From contig JAUCBJ010004596.1 of NCBI GenBank assembly GCA_032718475.1, forward strand, positions 1 to 61,466: a stretch of 61,466 nt of DNA. Reading direction: 5' to 3'. The notes under the pieces were generated by a model. It was not told the DNA's origin. It did not search any database and worked only from the letters and a program-made list of their open reading frames with translations. This DNA is from Nemertoderma westbladi. Its lineage: Eukaryota > Animalia > Xenacoelomorpha. Shown piece after piece: positions 45,900 through 61,466 of the stretch. The first letter of the stretch is position 1. Every line of letters begins with the position of its first letter. The translations under genes and the position numbers were made by a program.

Positions 45900-48800
45900 A
45901 TAATATTTATTTAATAACAATTTACTACACTTCTACAAACAATGTAGAATGTAGACGGTGGTTGGACGGGTGGGCCCATTACACCAACCACCGCTAGCAT
46001 TCAGCTACTGCATAAACCAATAGTTACTATAATACAAAGAAATTCTAGATAAAACAGTACAGTCATGCAACATGCAGTACATAAGCTCAATACAAAAACA
46101 AATATCCTACTGTACATTCTGACATTAATATGGGCCTAGTTTAAGTAAGTAGTATTATCGATTGATTTTTAACGGATGAAATACGTAACTATATTTTTAC
46201 TGTAATATAATAGTTAAAAAATAGGTCACAGGCAAGGTCATATTACCTTAGTACTCCAACTTTACTTTAGTACTCCAAATAAATGCATGCACACATACAC
46301 TACCGATAGTATACAATATTGTAACAAGTTTCTAAGATACAAAATCGAGTGCTACAAGCTACACTAAAAAATCCAGGCTGAGGCACGTTTTTGAGATCTA
46401 CGACAAAAAAACTATTACAAATATAAGCGCGCGAATACAGTAGATGTGAGGAGTTACTTAAAGTACAGTAGTTGAGATATATGCACAAAAAAACTATTAC
46501 AAATAAACACGCGAATACAGTAGATGTGAGGAGTTAGTGTATCTGGTTAAATGTAAAATATGTAAACAGTAGTTAATTAAATCATGTAAGCTGCTTTATT
46601 GCTCTTCGGTGAGCAGTTTAGTTACGGCGTTTTTGAATATGTTAATTGATTTTGCGTCCCGTACAGAAGAAAGCAGGGTGTTCCAGACCTCTGGTGCGCG
46701 CACTCTGATTGATTGTCTAGCGATCTCCAGACGGGTGCGTGGTACCGTAAAGTTATTATTTGTTGCTGATCTTGTTCGGTGTTGATGCGTGGTTGATATC
46801 AGTGTGAGTAGAGAAGGGAATATATCTGATGGTAGTAGTTTCTTTATGTAACTATAACTGAGTATTGCAATATGTTTGATGTAAATAGAGCGTATCGTTA
46901 GTGGGGTGAAATTTGTGTTGCCTTTTGATATATAAATTTTCTGTGCTTTCTGTTGCAGCTTGTGTAAAGTTGAAACATTGGTAGTTAGTTTGTCTTCAGG
47001 TTTCCGTCGCTTTCGGCGCCGCCCGTAGTGACAGTGTTTGGTTGAATTTCTATCCATAGTTGTTTTAGTATTTATGTTTTTATATGATTTTATTGCCCAC
47101 ACAGTATTACAGTACCAGTACATTAGGTAGGGATTGATCAACGTATTGTATAATTGTATAACTACAAGTGTTTTTGCGGTGACAAAATTTTTGATCCTAT
47201 TAATTATGCCAATGTTACGACTGATTTTGATACGCAAATAATCACAATGATTTTTCCAGCTGAGGTGTTCAACCATGTTGACGCCAAGAAATTTAATTAC
47301 TTTCTGTCGCTCAATTGTGATTCCATTAATTTTTATTGGTGGTAGTGTGTTTATATTAAGGTGTTTGTTTTGGGTTCGAAAAATGATGACGTTTGTTTTT
47401 TTTATGTTCAGTGATAGTCTGTTCAGTTGGAACCACCGTGTCAATTTGTCCAGCTCATTATTAATATCGGTAATCAGTGAATTTATGTCCACACCCGATT
47501 TAAACAAATTAGTATTGTCGGCGTACAGTATAAATTTAATGAGCTTGGATACGGTAGTTAGATCGTTACAGTAGATTATAAATAAGAGGGGGCTCAATAG
47601 CGACCCTTGTGGCAATCCTATTATAATTGTGGCGAAGTTTGATTTGGCTGTACCTATAGTCACATATTGCACTCGATCTGTAAGGTAGCTAGTAATCCAG
47701 ACAAGGGCAACATCAGTGATCCCATAGCGTTGTAATTTTTGTATCAGGATTTGGTGGTTTACTGTGTCGTCGAAGGCTTCATTTGGCTGGGAACTGAGCC
47801 AGTAGATAGTGAAATATTAATAATGTGAACCAGAGGTTCCGCGATGAGTGTGATTAGTTGGATGAATACCGGATGCTGCCAGGTCGTCATATCCAGGACT
47901 GGTTCTCTTGTTAAGCGAGTTTGCTGTGTATAGAATGTCTTGTGGCGTTATTGTGTTAAACATTTTAAGTTTTACTGTCGGTTCAGTTCTGGGTATGTAA
48001 TCGAGAGGAGAACCGTTTGTGGTTGGTATTTCCTTATCTAGTTTTTGACCTATGTTAATGTAATTGTCATTGAAGGCATTTGCAATTTTTATTGGATCAG
48101 TGTATATTCGTTGGTTGTAAGTTACCAATGTGGGAGAGGGTAATTTGGGCTTCTTACGTATCAGTTGATTGATGTGACCCATACTGATCGGGCATTTTGT
48201 TTCTTGAAGTCAAGTACCATACTGTAATATGTCTTCTTTGCGGTTCTTAGTAAGCTATTCAGTGCATTTCGGTAGTGTCTGAATGATGCCTGTTTATCAG
48301 GGGTTGGGTCCTTGGTGTAGTTTCCATACAGTCGGTCGCGTTTCTTCATCGCTCTAAGCAGGGATTCAGTCAAGCATGGTTTTTCCCCATTACGTATTTT
48401 TACTTGTTCAAGTGGGAAGTGTGTATTGTAGTGGTGCTGGTAAGTATGTAAGAAAGTATCGTATGCGTTGTCTGCCGTAGTTTGTTTGTATACTTCATTC
48501 CAGTTTGTTAATTGCAAGCTGTTTGTGAAAGCCTCTTGTTTTTTTTGTGATGTAGTTTTCGGCGATACATGTATTGATGTTTCGGTTTCTGACTTGTTAT
48601 TATATTTTGTAAGCGTGAAGATTGGAATGCCAGTATCGTATGCGTTGTCTGCCGTAGTTTGTTTGTATACTTCATTCCAGTTTGTTAATTGCAAGCTGTT
48701 TGTGAAAGCCTCTTGTTTTTTTTGTGATGTAGTTTTCGGCGATACATGTATTGATGTTTCGGTTTCTGACTTGTTATTATATTTTGTAAGCGTGAAGATT

Positions 48801-49915
48801 GGAATGTGGTCTGAAATCGGAGAGATCAGTAAACCAGATGTTAGTTTCGATGTAGAGTTAGAGAATATGTTATCGATTAGCGTTGCGGAGTGGTGTGTGA
48901 TTCGAGTTGGTTTAGAGATAGTGTGAATGTAATTGTAGGTTGTCATGAAGTTAAAAAGTCGGCACTAACCGGGCTAATATTTGTTTTTAACAAGTCGATG
49001 TTAAAATCACCAAGTAAAAAACAAGGTTTACTTTCGTTATTAATTTTTTCCATAGAAGGTTGTAGGGAAGAAAATGTATCCTGCACAGCGGTATTAGGAG
49101 GCCGGTAGATTGCCCCAATAATTATATTTTTACTTTTCATTTGTGGGATTTCAAGGAAAAGTGTTTCTACTGGAGTTGGGGGTTTACAATGTAAGTCTTT
49201 GCGCTGAAATGCTGGGAGGTCAGTGTGTACATATATGGCAACGTCACCCCCACTTTTGTCTATTCGCGGATGTGAAAATGTTTTATAGTTTGGTAGTGAA
49301 AACTGCGAGTGATCAGTGTCGTGCAGCCAGGTTTTTGAGATACAGTAGCAATCACAGAACTGCCTCGCCAGGCCATATACCCCTGCAGCCAAGTATATGG
49401 GTCCGTAATCCAGGACCAAGGGCGTCCTTATCCCAGAACGAAGGGGGTCCTACTGTAGTTACTTGTTAGTTGTTTTCAGACTGGATAGTAGACTTTCAAT
49501 TTTATCGAAATTGGCAGACAAACTACGAGCGTTGAAATGAATAAGGGACAGCTGTGGGGAAAGATGGCCAAATTTTAAATTGAAATCTTCAGGAAAGTTA
49601 TAAGTACAGTTACGTAAGTGTGCAGTGTCAGTGGGAATGTGGACGTCGGGGTTAAAGTTCGTGTCAAACTCCGTGTCCTTAGTCGATGTGGGGTCTGTTA
49701 AGTTGTACTTGTTGAAATACTGCGTGTCTAAGTAGTAATATCTATGTAGCCTGGGATACGGAAGTCTCTTGCTGTGAGTGTAAATTCGTTGTCATCAATA
49801 ATATGCTTAAAGGGTAGCGACTCAGATAGACAGGTGGGGCAGAACCAGTTTGAGTTTGAGTTTTGGAAGTTAGTGTAGTCTTTTTGGGAGAGGGTCAGCG
49901 AGATACATTTTGCAT
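45900..49915 (-). mobile_element. Decayed, 5'-truncated CR1-group LINE (PHD remnant-APE-RT, long 3' UTR)
   Basis: Fragments: AKC...WFCPTCLSESLPF (PHD C-half), LIHFNARSL, ISKTWL, GAIYRPP, LLGDFNIDL, TLIDNIF, SDHIPI (APE), and GLPQGSLLSPLLFIIY, YADN, KFLGV (RT). Multiple frameshifts, a deletion in RT near 47778, and a 3' end with hairpins and AATAAA. Confidence 0.92.
48455..48806. repeat. Internal tandem duplication in the LINE (period 177 bp, in frame)
   Basis: 48455-48629 is repeated at 48632-48806 with a 2-nt spacer. Visible as a doubled 59-aa peptide in ORF 48161-48946. Confidence 0.93.
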
Positions 49916-50102
49916 TTATTATAGGAAGGGATCTTGGGGGTCTTAGCCTCGAATGATAAGTTTATTTTACCGAAAATAACTTATCTTTTATTGGCGCAAT
50001 TGTAGGACTAATCCCATCACATGCGTACTTTTTAACCAGGTAGTGTACAAATTTAGGAATCGCGTAATTTTTTCTTGAAATTAATATCTCATATCTCTCC
50101 AA

Positions 50103-50145
50103 ACCACGTATGCGTTTCGACCTTACTGGGTCTCATCAGCGTGGT
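50103..50145 (-). ncRNA. Type I minimal hammerhead ribozyme, copy 1 (stem III variant GAAACGCAUA)
   Basis: ACCACG-CUGAUGA-GACC-CAGUAA-GGUC-GAA-AC-GC-AU-A-CGUGGU. The G16.2>A change breaks the stem III palindrome. Confidence 0.75.
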
Positions 50146-50208
50146 GTCGGATTCGAACCTGGGACCTCGAGGTGGAAGCCGAGACTACAACCACTAGGCC
50201 ACAGGTTC
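50142..50208 (-). promoter_or_regulatory. tRNA-derived Pol III internal promoter (present in every unit; copy 1 shown)
   Basis: A box TGGCCTAGTGG (50201-50191) and B box GGTTCGAATCC (50159-50149) at tRNA-like spacing, ending in ACCA. The stems are degenerate, so this is not a functional tRNA. Confidence 0.8.
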
Positions 50209-50531
50209 TTGAGATATGGAGTATTAATTTCAAAGCCAGCTGCCATTTTTTTTTTTTTTTTTTTTTTAAGCCCCTAATTTTTTATTATTGATAGTAACAA
50301 TGTGTTGGCAAGCTGTATTTTTCGAGGTGTTTGTTATTATACATTTATTATAGGAAGGGATCTTGGGGGTCTTAGCCTCGAATGATAAGTTTATTTTACC
50401 GAAAATAACTTATCTTTTATTGGCGCAATTGTAGGACTAATCCCATCACATGCGTACTTTTTAACCAGGTAGTGTACAAATTTAGGAATCGCGTAATTTT
50501 TTCTTGAAATTAATATCTCATATCTCTCCAA

Positions 50532-50574
50532 ACCACGTACGCGTTTCGACCTTACTGGGTCTCATCAACGTGGT
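50532..50574 (-). ncRNA. Type I minimal hammerhead ribozyme, copy 2 (core variant UUGAUGA)
   Basis: Same fold, but with C3>U in the catalytic core. Confidence 0.75.
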
Positions 50575-50670
50575 GTCGGATTCGAACCTGGGACCTCGAG
50601 GTGGAAGCCGAGACTACAACCACTAGGCCACAGGTTCTTGAGATATGGAGTATTAATTTCAAAGCCAGCT

Positions 50671-50701
<31 letters not shown>

Positions 50702-50964
50702 AGCCCCTGATTTTTTATTATTGATAGTAACAATGTGTTGGCAAGCTGTATTTTTCGAGGTGTTTGTTATTATACATTTATTATAGGAAGGGATCTTGGG
50801 GGTCTTAGCCTCGAATGATAAGTTTATTTTACTGAAAATAACTTATCTTTTATTGGCGCAATTGTTGGACTAATCCCATCACATGCGTACTTTTTAACCA
50901 GGTAGTGTACAAATTTAGGAATCGCGTAATTTTTTCTTGAAATTAATATCTCATATCTCTCCAA

Positions 50965-51007
50965 ACCACGTACGCGTTTCGACCTTACTGGGTCTCATCA
51001 GCGTGGT
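50965..51007 (-). ncRNA. Type I minimal hammerhead ribozyme, copy 3 (intact)
   Basis: ACCACG-CUGAUGA-GACC-CAGUAA-GGUC-GAA-AC-GC-GU-A-CGUGGU. Full conserved core, 6-bp stem I, 4-bp stem II, palindromic ACGCGU stem III, GUA cleavage triplet. Confidence 0.92.
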
Positions 51008-51101
51008 GTCGGATTCGAACCTGGGACCTCGAGGTGGAAGCCGAGACTACAACCACTAGACCACAGGTTCTTGAGATATGGAGTATTAATTTCAAAGCCA
51101 G

Positions 51102-51143
<42 letters not shown>

Positions 51144-51404
51144 CCCCTGATTTTTTATTATTGATAGTAACAATGTGTTGGCAAGCTGTATTTTTCGAGG
51201 TGTTTGTTATTATACATTTATTATAGGAAGGGATCTTGGGGGTCTTAGCCTCGAATGATAAGTTTATTTTACCGAAAATAACTTATCTTTTATTGGCGCA
51301 ATTGTAGGACTAATCCCATCATATGCGTACTTTTTAACTAGGTAGTGTACAAATTTAGGAATCGCGTAATTTTTTCTTGAAATTAATATCTCATATCTCT
51401 CCAA

Positions 51405-51447
51405 ACCACGTACGCGTTTCGACCTTACTGGGTCTCATCAGCGTGGT
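51405..51447 (-). ncRNA. Type I minimal hammerhead ribozyme, copy 4 (intact)
   Basis: Identical to copy 3. Confidence 0.92.
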
Positions 51448-51543
51448 GTCGGATTCTAACCTGGGACCTCGAGGTGGAAGCCGAGACTACAACCACTAGG
51501 CCACAGGTTCTTGAGATATGGAGTATTAATTTCAAAGCCAGCT

Positions 51544-51579
<36 letters not shown>

Positions 51580-52267
51580 CCCCTGATTTTTTATTATTGA
51601 TAGTAACAATGTGTTGGCAAGCTGTATTTTTCGAGGTGTTTGTTATTATACATTTATTATAGGAAGGGATCTTGGGGGTGGAAGTGGAAGTGGAAGTGGA
51701 CCTCGAAGTGGAAGCCGATACTACAACCACAAGGCCACAGGTTCTTGAGATATGGAGTATTCATTTAATAGCTAGGAGTTTTTGTGGAAAAATATGTAAA
51801 TTATTTAATTAGTAATTAGATTTAAAGTTTTCTAATCGATTTTTCTCGAAAAGTATTTGGTTTTTCTCATAGCAACGGCATTTTTTTTGTTCATCTCGGT
51901 ACGATCTGTACGATTGGTACGTAGCCAGTGATTGGTCGAAATTTTAAAACCCTATATCTCGAGATCTATTAACTTTGGAGCGTCGAATAAAAGCTTAAAA
52001 TATTTATAGGTCCATCCCCATCATGCTGCCGACGACGCTATCGCGGTCGAACCACCAGTTAAAGAGTTCTGTGCTGTGATTGGTCGATTTTCAAGACTCC
52101 ATATCTCGAGATCCATTCACTTTGGTCTTGGTGCGGCGAATAAAAGATTAAAATGTTTTCTGGAGCGATCTCAGCCCGTTAGTGAAGGTCCCAGTGATGT
52201 TGCAATAACGGTTCCGGAGTTATGGTCATTTCTGTTTGGTCTAATTTAAAATCACAATAAATACGCT

Positions 52268-55200
52268 GGAACGAGGTTTGTCGAACCCGCTGCCGCTACC
52301 ATCGGAATGAGGTTGGACAAACCTGCTATGGTCGGAATGAGGTTGGTGTTGGACGAACCCGCTATGGTTGGAACGACGTTTTACGAACCCACTACAGTCG
52401 GAACGAGGTTTGACGAATCCGATATGGTCGGAACAAGGTTTGACAAACCCGCTACGGTCAGAACAAGGTTTGACAAATCCGGTATGGTTGGAACGAGGTT
52501 TGATGAACCCGCTACAGCCGGAGCGAGGTTTGACAAACCTGCTACGACTGTACAGTTGGAATGAGGTTGGACGAACCCGATACGGCCAGAACAACGTTTT
52601 AAGAACCCGCTATGGTCGGAACGAGGTTTGACGAACCCGATACAGTCGGAACGAGGTTTGACGAACCCACTATGGTCATAACAAGGTTTGACGAACCCGC
52701 TATGGTCGCGTTCAGAACGAGGTTTGATGAACCCGCCATGGTCGGAACGAGGTTTGATGAACCCGATATGGTTGGAATGAGGTTTGATGAACCCGCTATG
52801 GTTGGAATGACGTTTTAATAACCCGCTACAGTCAAACTAGGTCTGATGTACCTGATACGGTCAGGACGACGTTTGACGAACCCGATATGGTCGAACCAGC
52901 TACGGTCGCGGTCGGAACGAGGTTTAATTAACCGGCTATGGTCAGAACGAGGTTTGAAGAACCCACTATGGTCGGATCGGAACGAGGTTTGATGAACCTG
53001 ATACAGTCGGAACAAGGTTTGTTGAACCTGCTACCATCGTGGTCGGAACGAGGTTTGACGAACCCACTATGGTCGCGTTCAGAAAGAGGTTTGACGAACC
53101 TGCTACGGTCGCAGTCGGCACTAGGTTTGATGAACCCGCTATGGTCGCGTTCAGATCAAGGTTTGACGAACCCACTATGGTCGCATTCAGAACGAAGTTT
53201 GATGAACCTGCTATGGTCAGAACGAGGTTTGATGAACCCGATATGGTTGGAACAAGGTTTGACGAACCCGGTACAGTTGCGTTCAGAACGAGGTTTGACG
53301 AACCCGCTATGGTCGGAATGAGTTTTGACGAACCCGATACAGTCGAAAAGAGGTTTGATGAACCTGCTATGGTCGGAACGACGTTTTAATAACCCGCTAC
53401 GGTCGGAATGAGGTTTGACGTACCCAATATGGTCGGAACGAGGTTTGTCGAACCCGCTATGGTCGCAGTCGGAACGAGGTTTGACGAACCCGATACGGTC
53501 GGAACGAGGTTTGACGAACCCGATACGGTCGGAACAAGGTTTGACGAACCCGCTATGGTCATAACAAGGTTTGACGAACCCGCTACGGTCGCATTCAGAA
53601 CGAGGTTTTATGAACCTGCTATGGTCGGAACGAGGTTTGACAAATCCGATACGGTCAGAATGAGGTTTGACGAACCCGCTATGGTCGGAACGACGTTTTA
53701 ATACCCCTCTATGGTTGGAACTAGGTTTGACGTACCCGATACGGTCGGGACAAGGTTTGATGAACCCAATACGGTCGGAACAAGGTTTGTTGAACCCGCT
53801 ACAGTCGTGGTCGGAACGAGGTTTGACGAACCCGCTATGGTCAGAACGACGTTTTAATAACCCGCTACGGTCGGAATGAGATTTGACGTACCCGATACAG
53901 TCGGAACGAGGTTTGTCGAACCCGCTATGGTCGCGGTTGGAACGAGGTTTGACGAACCCGCTACAGTCGCGTTCTGAACGAGGTTTGACGAACCCACTAC
54001 GGTCGGAACGACGTTTTAATAACCTGCTATGGTCGGAACGAGGTTTGACGTACCCAATACAGTCGGAACAAGGTTTGTTGAACCAGCTACGGTCACGGTC
54101 AGAATGAGGTTTGACGAACCCGCTACGGTCGCGTTCAGAACGAGGTTTGATGAACCCGCTATGGTCAGAATGATGTTTTAATAACCCGCTATGGTCGGAA
54201 CGAGGTTTGAAATATCCGATACGGTCAGATTTGACGAACCCGCTATGGTTGAAACGACGTTTTAATATCCCGCTATGGTCGGAACTAGGTTTGATGTACC
54301 CGATATAGTCGGGACGAGGTTTGACGAACCTGATACGGTCGGAACAAGGTTTGTTGAACCTGCTACAGTCGCCGTTGGAACGAGGTTTGACGAACCCGCT
54401 ATGGTCAGAACGAGGTTTGAAGAACCCGCTACGGTCGGAACGGAACGAGGTTTGATGGACCTGATACAGTCGGAATGAGGTTTGTCAAACCCACTACCAT
54501 TGTGGTTTGAACGAGGTTTGACGAACCCACTATGGTCGCGTTCAGAACGAGGTTTGACAAACCCGCTACAGTCACGGTCGGAACGAGGTTTGATGAACCC
54601 GCATGGTCACGTTCAGAACGAGGTTTGACAAACCCGCTACAGTCGCATTCAGAACGAGGTTTGATGAACTCACTATGGTTGGAACAAGGTTTGATGAACC
54701 CGATACAGTCGGAACGAGGTTTGACAATCCCACTATGGTCGGAATGACGTTTTAATAACCCGCTATGGTCGGAACAAGGTTTGATGTACCTGATACGGTT
54801 GGAACAAGGTTTGTCGAACCTTCTACAGTCGTGGTCAGAGCGACGTTTGACGAACCCGCTACGGTCACGTTCAGAACGAGGCTTGACAAACCTGCTGCTA
54901 TGGTCGGAACGAGGTTTGACGTATCCGATATGGTTGGAGCAAGGTTTGTCGAACCTGCTATGGTCGTGGTCAGAACGAGGTATGACAAACCCGCTACGGT
55001 CGCATTCAGAATGATGTTTGACGAACCAGCTACGGTCGTGTTCACAACGAGGTTTGACGAACGCGCTATGGTCAGAACGAGGTTTGACGAACCCTTCTAT
55101 GGTCAGAACGAGGTTTGTCGAACCGATACGGTCGGAACAAGGTTTGACGAACCCGCAATGGTTCCGTTCAGAACGAGGTTTGACGAACCCGCTATGGTCA

Positions 55201-55365
55201 GAACGACGTTTTAATAACCTGCTACAGTCGAAACGATGTTTGACGTACCCGATACAGTCGGAACAAGGTTTGTCGAACCCGCTATGGTCGCAGTCGGAAT
55301 GAGGTTTGACGAACCCAATACAGTCCGAACGAGGTAGGACGAACTCGCCAGAGTCGAAACGAGTT
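52268..55365. repeat. Divergent 30/36-bp minisatellite (~3.1 kb)
   Basis: Unit GGTCGGAACGAGGTTTGACGAACCCGCTAT, with 6-bp insertion variants (GGTCGCGTTCAGAACG) and recurrent CGACGTTTTAATAACC variants. Confidence 0.95.
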
Positions 55366-55481
55366 TGGCATAATGAAACAAAAGAAATTTCAATTGGTTT
55401 AATGTATGTGGTAATTTAAATTTTCAAAGATTTTTGAGTAATTTATTGTTACTGGTATATAATTATTGTTCATTTAATTTT

Positions 55482-58773: not shown

Positions 58774-61466
58774 TCAACCGGACCGGCATCTCCTCCGGAC
58801 ACTTCTCCGGACATCTCGCCGTCCACTCTTCTCCATCCTCATACCGATACTTGCCAGGAACATCCTTGTTCCATTCGTCTCTAAGTCTTCCGCGTCGAAT
58901 CCATTCTCCTCCGCCCACTCTCTTGCTGTTACTTCCCCTCCTAACTTATCTACCGACTGTATTTCTCTGGAACTATCCTCTATCCTTTCACCACACTCCA
59001 CTATGCGTGGTTCCAGATCCATACCCAACTCCTGGTATCCTTCCCCAGGCCGCTTCTCACATGGGACCTCCCCATCGCCCATCTCTGGTTTCTCCTCTAC
59101 GTCATCAACGGTGCCTGATAGCATGCACCCTGATGTCTCCGACACCCTGAATGGAATCTTGGTTTTAATTGGACCGAAAAGTGTCCATCCGAACGGCGTG
59201 AGAATCGCCGTTGGATCCCACTGCTTATTCTCTCCGAATATGGTCCTTACTCTCTTGTGGGCCGTTGGACAATCCATTCCGACTATGATGGATACCTTAG
59301 AGACATCCACTTTCGGTATTGAGAAATCGATATCGTCCAGGAATCGGTATTGCTCGACCTCGATCTTAGTTGGTCGCCTGGCATTTATGTTGATCGATTC
59401 TATTATCTGAATGGTGTTGATGGTCACCCCATAGTCACATCCCGGTGCTATTGCTGATATCTCGCACTGTCCCGTCGTCATCTCCAGGACCTCATCCTTA
59501 CTCGATATAGCAGTTACTGCCATCCTACTCGGCCTCGTCTGTAATCCTATCTCATCGGCCACCCAATTCTCCACCAGCGTGAAGGCTGCTCCGCTGTCGA
59601 CCAGCATCAGTGTCGTGACTGATCGACCGCCCTCTCCTGTTATCCTCACTGGTACTACCCCGAGTAGTACTTTCCTCTTTCTTCTTGCTCCTGTCGTGCT
59701 CGTAGCCATTGTTTGGCCTCCAGTCTCGTCATATTCTGTCGGTGTTTCTCTACACTCTCCGAATTTGTGTCCCTCTACCACGCATCGGTGACATAGTCCG
59801 TTCGTATCCGCGTAGGCTACCCGATCTTGTATAGGCAATGCTTGCCAATGCTTACAACTCATGGTCTTATGGGTTCCATCCCTATGCAATTGACATTCGT
59901 ATCCTGGATTGTAGCGCTCCCTGTATAGACCTTCACATATAGCGCTTAGATTCATATCTACCGGTTTAGTGTTTTGGTTATTTGGACTCGGCCTACTGGG
60001 TATGTTGGTGTTATATTTGTTCGCGTTGTTATTTTGTTTCTGTCCCTGCCACGGTGTGGCCTTACTTCCAGCTAACTGTGGACTAGCAGTCCCCTGCGTG
60101 GCCGCATGTGGTAGCGACTGTCTCACTCTCAGGAATGGATCTGCCGGACTGTGTTCAGGTTTAGGCCTGTTGTATTTGGTCTTCGGTGCCTTCCCCAAAC
60201 TATCCCCACTGTAGACTGGGTCTGTAATCAACTCTGCTTCATAGTTGAGGAAGTTTGACATTTCCTCTAGGCCCGGTTCTGCACCTTTCTTCTCCCGGGT
60301 GGAGAAGGCGATCTTCCTCCACTTGTTCTGTAGCCAGATCGGCAGTGCCTGCGTATCGTGGTGATGTTATTCGATGCATTGAGTTTGTATGGCGCGTCTA
60401 GCATCTTCAGCACGATTAACGCCTTCTCGACCTTATTTGCAAAGGTCTTCATACAAACAGGGTTATTCTGTAGGCCATCCGATGTTATTCCCCTCAGGGT
60501 CTGCCGGATGATCTTGGCAGGGTGTCCATATTCCCTGTCTAGGGCCCACCATGCAGTCATGAAGCCACCCTCGATGCCCTGATACTGCCTCATGATGTTG
60601 TACGCTGGGCCTCCCGTGTACACTTGTAATTATTTTAGGCACTCTGCCTGCGTCAGGTTTTTAGTTAGTATTTCATTGCTGTACATGGGTCGGAATTGCA
60701 GGTATTCTTCCGGTCTGCTTCCGTCGAATTTGAATGCCTCAACTGGTGGTAGCTCAATCCTGGTCTTGAGCGCATCAATAAGTGTTGCCATTCCCATCGT
60801 CTGTGCTTCCAATGGGTTCGAGGGATGCTGTACAGACTCTCCTGTTGGGTGCTGTCCGCCCGTCGGGCCTGTTGATTTCTTCTGTGTCGGATATATCATT
60901 GGGGGTAACGGCCCCCTCCATATCTCCGTGTCGCACGATCTGTTCTGGTCCAGGGGGTTCGATGTTCTTGTTCTCGGTTGAGTGTATTGCTGATATTGCA
61001 ATGGGGGAATGTCACCCTGTCCCCCCCCCACCAGTGTTATGTTTGGTACTGGGGTTGATGTTAATATATTGGGGCCCATGCATCTATCGGCAATAACTCC
61101 CCCCTCCCCTGGGTATATGTTATATCCCTGCATATTATAGTATACTGGTGTGCAGGTACCGGTATAGGCCTATCCACTTCCTGCCTACCTACCGGTATGT
61201 ATGCCGTGACTTCCGGATCTAATCCTATTGTTCGCGCTACCCTATCACCTACACTATCTCTTCCAGTATGGCCTATAGTATGTGCAGTAAGGCCTACAGT
61301 ATGTCCTGCAGTCTGCCTGTGTCCTTCCGGACCGAAGTTTAATCTTCTCGAATATTCCAAGAAGGCCTCCCCACGACCACCATACTCTCGATCGGAGCTA
61401 TATCCCGTCGGGAGATTTCTCTTCGATCCCCTCTCCTGTTCTCGTCCTCGTATCGGTATGTTCTGT
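58774..61466 (-). pseudogene. Disrupted BEL/Pao gag-protease (no RT/RNase H/integrase seen)
   Basis: DUF1759-like FKFDGSRPEEYLQF and AWWALDREYG, knuckles CQLHRDGTHKTMSC and CHRCVVEGHKFGEC, protease LVDSGAAFTLV, and TPFGWTLFGP. In-frame stop at 60630-60632 and frame changes near 60300 and 61100. Confidence 0.85.

Follow-up and report, generated by a model that had tools for sequence, protein, structure and literature searches.

In the Sm-alpha repeats of Schistosoma, a Pol III promoter with A and B boxes (PMC2576457), which originated from tRNA-Gln (PMC2770079), is followed by a hammerhead ribozyme; cleavage leaves the promoter at the 3' end of the product, and tandem copies are needed (PMC6765202). 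Most metazoan type I hammerheads work as dimers within tandem repeats and are silent in monomeric circles, and their geometry consists of a helix I of 6 bp, a helix II of 4 bp and a helix III of 1-2 bp with a palindromic loop (PMC4209133). A looped distal extension of helix I belongs to the standard type I architecture (PMC6155905), and the GUA triplet is on record in natural hammerheads (PMC1636495). The unit size of retrozymes has been given as 170-400 nt and also as 150-450 bp (PMC7229834).

The repeat described here lies in a 61,466-nt contig from the xenacoelomorph Nemertoderma westbladi (assembly GCA_032718475.1, contig JAUCBJ010004596.1), the whole of which is called the window below. 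Its tandem, non-coding units carry a type I hammerhead motif on the minus strand, downstream of A- and B-box-like motifs (Table 1). The explanation that we consider probable is that this hammerhead belongs to a non-LTR retrozyme with a tRNA-derived Pol III promoter, built on the Sm-alpha design, and by analogy with the described systems the unit is likely a new family among such elements. Unit u2, which has 405 nt between its A runs and a GC content of 39%, is non-coding and shows no LTR structure. The open frames of the array are stop-to-stop stretches of 90-111 aa through homopolymer, and no reverse transcriptase or GIY-YIG ORF lies inside the unit; the reverse transcriptase beside the array is that of an APE-type LINE. 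Hammerhead cores are intact in the consecutive units u1 and u2 and altered, by one core change each, in u3 and u4, while the four window copies differ at 4 of the 166 columns of the promoter-ribozyme module, none of them in stem I. The array both starts and stops inside the unit body, with 29 nt of body repeated at its two ends, as expected from the copying of a circle or multimer. Both ends map to 50775-50803, where contig depth dips and loose ends cluster; this is only a hint of a fixed element boundary, as the position is also that of a common indel variant.

Table 1. Features of the repeat array and of unit u2, with window coordinates.
Feature	Position	Strand	Remarks
Tandem array	49913-51679	minus	about 4.1 units of 429-440 bp, 97% alike
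Unit u2	50702-51106	minus	between two poly(A) runs; sole window copy with B box and ribozyme core both intact
Leader upstream of A box	51073-51096	minus	predicted 23-bp pairing with 50959-50936
7-nt strand	51064-51070	minus	predicted pairing with 51023-51017 (5' half of B box), in place of a tRNA T-arm
A-box-like motif	51053-51063	minus	first base 43 nt before G53 of the B box
B-box-like motif	51011-51021	minus	last 3 bases open the distal helix of stem I
Stem I, 5' strand	51002-51013	minus	5 distal and 6 proximal nt around the bulged C (51008); positions 60-71 of a tRNA when counted from G53
Hammerhead core C3-A9	50995-51001	minus
Stem II	50981-50994	minus	4 bp; 6-nt loop II (50990-50985) ending in A
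GAAA, stem III and GUA triplet	50971-50980	minus	stem III palindrome 50977-50972; predicted cut 50971/50970
Stem I, 3' strand	50960-50970	minus	U1.7 at 50964
Rod 3' arm, partner of leader	50936-50959	minus
10-mer	50919-50928	minus	complementary at 9 of 10 positions to GAAA/stem III/cleavage triplet
T4 run	50835-50838	minus	only four-T run of the unit on the sense strand; possible Pol III terminator
Poly(A)	51107-51141	minus	35 nt here; 22-35 nt over the four copies
Ribozyme of copy u1	51399-51461	minus	core intact; B box altered at 51457
Ribozyme of copy u3	50526-50588	minus	core position C3 altered; likely inactive, judged from sequence
Ribozyme of copy u4	50097-50159	minus	position 16.2 altered; palindrome broken
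Diverged fragment	51698-51775	minus	89.7% identity over 78 nt; part of leader and A box, cut before B box

The window is rich in repeats, with a 48-bp satellite at about 6.4-43 kb, a LINE at about 46.6-49.9 kb and the protease frame of an LTR element near 59 kb. The satellite extends over 36 kb (6441-43053), with 32- and 80-bp variants of its 48-bp unit and a strong strand skew. The LINE (46596-49900), a decayed APE/RT element with an internal 177-bp duplication, adjoins the hammerhead array, and the LTR-element frame (58774-61169) matches an aspartyl protease. A GC-rich 30-bp tandem repeat at 52302-55367, with long stop-free frames of up to 442 aa on both strands, may be either coding or a simple minisatellite. 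Another short repeat, present twice at 51900-52160, has an 8-11 nt motif in common with the reverse complement of the element's leader, through either chance or common origin. The diverged head fragment (51678-51775 region) passes into a 6-nt microsatellite immediately beside the array start, and the unit of this microsatellite matches the head's own anticodon-loop region.

The hammerhead motif consists of a CUGAUGA core, a stem II with the loop CAGUAA, a GAAA segment and a GUA triplet. The conserved positions C3-A9, G12-A14 and A15.1-U16.1, the NUH triplet and the three helices are present in canonical metazoan geometry, together with the G10.1-C11.1 pair in u1 and u2. No Rfam family reached its gathering score anywhere in the window; the match to HH9, with an E-value of 1.5e-4 over 4227 families, scored 26.6 bits, under the gathering score of 52. 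The 11-bp stem I with one bulged C that had been put forward in the preliminary description is there in the sequence, and its pairs have predicted probabilities of 0.76-1.0 in the 166-nt module, in the whole unit and in the circular monomer: UCCGA (51013-51009) and ACCACG (51007-51002) pair with CGUGGU-UUGGA (50970-50960), one of the 11 pairs being G-U. Stem I has the shape of 6 bp, a bulged C and 5 bp, and the standard HH9 shape is a 6-bp helix, a loop and a 5-bp helix. Loop 1 falls short of the HH9 consensus in size, being here a bulge of 1 nt or a 2x1 loop. When the real 5' flank was fixed and the 3' flank randomized, the distal 5 bp arose by chance with a probability of 0.003-0.006 if only a 1-nt bulge was allowed, 0.02-0.045 with loops of up to 4 nt and 0.09 with loops of up to 7 nt, and 0.08 when judged by energy gain. 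The distal helix is probably not a product of chance, by a margin that varies with the test. Taken alone, the 63-nt stretch has a stability that 39 of 200 shuffles also reach (z -1.0). The distal 5 bp are modeled as the second helix that type I hammerheads ordinarily have, which would be provided here by a remnant of the tRNA T-stem and acceptor, since ribozyme and head lie side by side.

A U at position 1.7 and an A as the last base of loop II are both present; U1.7 is predicted to be paired (0.95), and loop 1 is just a bulge or a 2x1 loop. A Hoogsteen contact between loops has been described for the Schistosoma hammerhead structure (PMC11875169), and by analogy U1.7 (50964) and the last A of loop II may fit such a contact better than the bulged C, which had earlier been suggested as the partner of loop II. 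If the U1.7-A contact forms, a 2x1 loop would divide the helix into 6+4 bp, and the main contact would not be the bulged C.

The two promoter-like boxes lie at a spacing typical of tRNAs, since the distance from A box to G53 is about 43-47 nt in control tRNAs, and only 18 of 5000 shuffles contained A and B boxes at tRNA spacing even by relaxed patterns, which makes a chance origin unlikely. A tRNA fold is not what is predicted for the head (T-stem pair probability 0, one of seven acceptor pairs in register), and neither ARAGORN nor Rfam detected a tRNA in it. It had been proposed that stem I is built from the end of the B box and the CCA end of the tRNA head. The first part of this proposal stands in reduced form, as the B box gives 3 bases (51013-51011) of the 12-nt strand, while the second fails on register: counted from G53, ACCA occupies tRNA positions 66-69, in the 3' strand of the acceptor stem and seven bases before the CCA end (73-76), which rules it out as that end. 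Among the control tRNAs (18 found by ARAGORN, of which 13 were used after four without a GTTCR anchor and one anchored on a wrong motif were dropped), CCA stands at 74-76 in 10 and is not encoded in 3. The 5' strand of stem I is at best T-stem plus acceptor-position sequence. A pairing of an acceptor-stem remnant with 51066-51060 was also considered; inspection by eye gave 5-6 of 7 pairs, but these are out of register and share bases with the A box, and the pairing was rejected as too weak. Neither the tRNA-like fold nor the in-register CCA end of a tRNA-derived SINE is found in the unit.

In place of a tRNA, the head is predicted to form part of a longer structure. The strand past the cut site is predicted to pair without a break, first over 11 bp with stem I and then over 23 bp with the leader, and the pairing of leader and 3' arm would clamp head and ribozyme into a rod. 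The 7-bp hairpin of 51064-51070 with 51023-51017 has a probability of 0.99-1.0 in u2 and u3 and of 0.83-0.84 in u1. The 166-nt module folds with a z-score of -4.7 (0 of 200 shuffles as good) and the monomer, whose two ends are predicted to be paired together, with one of -3.5 (0 of 100). In this model the distal helix of stem I would be one segment of the rod, as expected for self-paired retrozyme circles (PMC7229834). The stem III palindrome, of 6 nt, is unable to close well in one copy (probability 0). For u1 and u2 together the minimum-energy fold is a double hammerhead, at -162.4 kcal/mol, against -151.2 kcal/mol for two single ribozymes forced to close A15.1-U16.1; in the ensemble, stem III of the double hammerhead has a probability of 0.15, against 0.79 for stem I in cis without stem III. 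As modeled, the palindromic stem III points to dimer cleavage.

The family was followed in sequencing runs, seven of ten of which contained the unit or part of it; four (X1, X3, X4 and X5) were aligned, at an identity of at least 80%, and the DNA run X1 possibly comes from the source sample. Unit-matching contigs numbered 3355, 1287 and 75 in the DNA runs X1, X3 and X5, respectively, and one in X4, which may be an RNA run, and head-to-tail joints were present in X1, X3 and X4, those listed having an A-rich linker of about 6-8 nt. The single X4 contig, of 441 nt and closing on a 411-nt unit, fits tandem DNA as well as a circle and is not used as evidence of expression. Box motifs, ribozyme core, tandem arrangement and family abundance are all direct observations.

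The preliminary description regarded promoter and ribozyme as one co-adapted module, a view against which a head common without its hammerhead, or a stem I pairing not conserved among copies, would have counted. At an identity of at least 80%, summed depth, which is not copy number, was not higher over the head (51024-51065) than over the ribozyme (50968-51023) in any of three runs: 515-648k against 579-743k in X1, 141-212k against 284-423k in X3 and 2.4-2.7k against 4.9-6.8k in X5. Diverged contigs span both head and ribozyme, and among the 18 of 459 loose ends that were listed, one lies at the head-ribozyme junction (X5, 51021) and continues with head-like sequence. All four window copies have the same stem I strands, and stem I is free of variants of at least 5% in X1 and X3. 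At the same threshold, which applies to unphased variants of the run contigs, the A and B boxes show no variant in X1 or X3 except the private u2 base at 51060. The non-private variants of at least 5% in X1 or X3 all lie outside the module (50797-50808, 50918 and 50930); they form about three clusters and are not counted as evidence of selection. One X5 contig has a stem I change at 51003, which keeps a G-U pair, and is a dead copy, because three core positions are altered as well. The two situations that would have weighed against the module are thus not encountered: at this identity head and ribozyme travel together, and the pairing is conserved. However, invariant pairs carry no covariation signal and say nothing about selection on pairing, and the distal helix is of the standard type I kind, so that co-adaptation is no more than plausible.

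Relatives of the unit were sought with four pattern scans, and none of the 92 loci recovered was one. Neither the 7 viral and 53 metagenome loci of the B box plus hammerhead scan nor the 6 genome and 26 viral loci of the family core scan resembled the unit beyond short core matches.

Some of these loci have layouts of their own. In a metagenome tRNA cluster (L014:347-553), the space between tRNA-Thr (347-421) and tRNA-His (480-553) is taken up by a type I hammerhead. Its 5-bp stem I pairs positions 419-423, which are the CCA end encoded in tRNA-Thr and two further bases, with 479-483, at the 5' end of tRNA-His, and the cut is predicted after 478, one base before tRNA-His (fold z -3.3). This literal layout of a CCA end forming stem I was found at 1 of the 60 loci of the B box plus hammerhead scan, and as modeled it may represent ribozyme processing of a tRNA operon. 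In seven viral and metagenome loci (L003, L007, L015, L018, L028, L054 and L004), a complete type I hammerhead comes within about 13-15 nt after a T-arm-like end; ARAGORN found no tRNA in L003, L004 or L007. Most of the loci L061-L092 are type I hammerheads whose stem III is long and which often recur before successive genes on phage-like contigs; they are of the known prokaryotic kind, unrelated to the present family.

Compared with the described systems, the unit resembles Sm-alpha and Sj-alpha of Schistosoma in having a type I hammerhead downstream of A and B boxes, a tandem arrangement in which the upstream copy would transcribe the next, and a 6-nt loop II. Unlike Sm-alpha, many of whose heads score as tRNA-Gln in tRNAscan-SE (PMC2770079), the head here is predicted to refold as a non-tRNA hairpin. 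Further features of the present unit that set it apart are the direct passage of the B box into stem I, a GUA triplet and a stem III consisting of no more than a 6-nt palindrome. In Sm-alpha a spacer separates B box and stem I, loop 1 is larger, and the sequence is not known to be related to that of the present unit. For the overlap of B box and stem I, no published description was found in a full-text search that included hammerheads with tRNA or Pol III heads, subscription papers and the supplement of PMC7229834 lying outside its range.

With the animal non-LTR retrozymes (PMC7229834; bioRxiv 10.64898/2026.07.22.740005) the unit shares tandem units of a few hundred bp with one type I hammerhead each, a GC content below 50%, the lack of coding sequence, a monomer that is predicted to be self-paired with the ribozyme free to fold, and at least two consecutive intact ribozymes (u1 and u2). 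At 411-440 nt, it is slightly above the first of the published size ranges and inside the second (PMC7229834). It differs from these retrozymes in having a putative tRNA-type internal promoter; the main text of PMC7229834 contains none of the terms 'Pol III', 'polymerase III' and 'SINE'. The internally looped extension of helix I and a helix III of one bp with a palindromic tetraloop are shared with newt satellite 2 and axolotl HHR_Amex1 (PMC7229834, PMC6155905), in which the monomer is weak and the dimer efficient. Newt satellite 2 transcripts are reported as Pol II products (PMC6765202), in contrast to the Pol III-type boxes here. The type I fold, the palindromic helix III and tandem or partial-tandem insertion recall the pseudo-LTR hammerheads of Penelope-like elements (PMC4209133, PMC8557442); unlike those elements, the present unit is without an RT/GIY-YIG ORF.

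For a retrozyme with a tRNA-derived promoter, we infer Pol III transcription, read-through multimers, dimer cleavage, circle ligation and copying by a borrowed reverse transcriptase. Pol III would start near 51070-51085 and read through the single T4 to produce multimers, in which two neighboring ribozymes would pair their palindromic stem III and cut after GUA. Cleavage would release monomers of about 411-440 nt with the promoter near the 3' end. This position of the promoter, and the resulting need for tandem copies or circles, was correctly recognized in the preliminary description but had already been published for Sm-alpha (PMC6765202). The long self-paired rod would hold the monomer ends together, a host ligase would close them to circles, and a borrowed reverse transcriptase, probably that of a Penelope-like element, would copy the circles back as tandem arrays.

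The weak point of this scheme is the Pol III multimer step, as the T4 at 50838-50835 lies 130 nt past the predicted cut site and T runs are not depleted. A run of four T is able to stop Pol III, and the depletion expected as a Pol III signature is absent from the unit (1 run seen against 1.34 expected). These observations, together with the lack of a tRNA fold (T-arm pair probability 0) and the apparent Pol II origin of newt satellite transcripts (PMC6765202), would suit a unit in which the ribozyme and the circle cycle are real, multimers arise by Pol II read-through as in newt satellite 2, and the tRNA head is vestigial, with Pol III stopping at T4 or unused. We consider this unlikely, given that both boxes are near consensus at tRNA spacing and, apart from the base at 51060 in u2, are free of variants of at least 5% in X1 and X3. 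Their conservation could come from RNA pairing instead, because both boxes lie in predicted helices.

A stronger form of the module idea, that promoter and ribozyme constitute one selected module with a built-in switch, in which the leader holds the hammerhead against the downstream 9/10 antisense, is on present modeling decidedly improbable. The B-box RNA would be divided between the 7-bp hairpin and stem I, and cleavage would be off in the first unit of the Pol III transcript and on only in read-through multimers. In the predictions, removal of the leader lets the 10-mer at 50919-50928 compete with the ribozyme fold, and the probability of stem I falls in u1 and u2 from 0.85-0.96 to 0.06-0.43 as the 5' end shifts from 51077 or above to 51075-51065. 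Against a switch, it returns to 0.5-0.6 with a 5' end at 51063 and does not fall in u3, and the ribozyme is predicted to fold if the downstream part has not yet been made.

The presence in the window of poly(A) runs of 22-35 nt after an AATAAA-like stretch, the decayed EN/RT LINE that adjoins the array, and the contig groups that leave the unit in the A-rich stretch at 50711-50718 with mixed flanks recall an A-tailed tRNA SINE that acquired a hammerhead, was copied by LINE target-primed reverse transcription and formed an array by local duplication. This is very unlikely. The listed head-to-tail joints have an A-rich linker of only 6-8 nt, and because of this the poly(A) runs of the window copies are likely a local expansion. 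Moreover, the array ends in body rather than in head and tail, so that an insertion running from head to A-tail is not what is found there; head-to-tail joints occur in three runs (X1, X3 and X4), and a palindromic stem III suits tandem transcripts. Finally, that hammerhead and boxes are chance likenesses in satellite DNA without an RNA stage would agree with the Rfam score under the gathering threshold, the unremarkable 63-nt fold and the altered core in 2 of 4 window copies, but is hardly credible beside the complete set of conserved core positions in u1 and u2 with G10.1-C11.1, GUA, palindromic stem III and 11-bp stem I, the HH9 E-value and the module z-score.

The retrozyme with a tRNA-derived promoter remains our preferred reading, and with the unit a family that has no match in any library joins the tRNA-promoter hammerhead repeats described from schistosomes. 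It suggests that Pol III heads are maybe a recurring promoter of animal retrozymes, a group whose promoter is a subject on which the main text of PMC7229834 is silent. The direct overlap of B box and stem I provides a compact test of whether promoter function in DNA and folding in RNA constrain the same bases.
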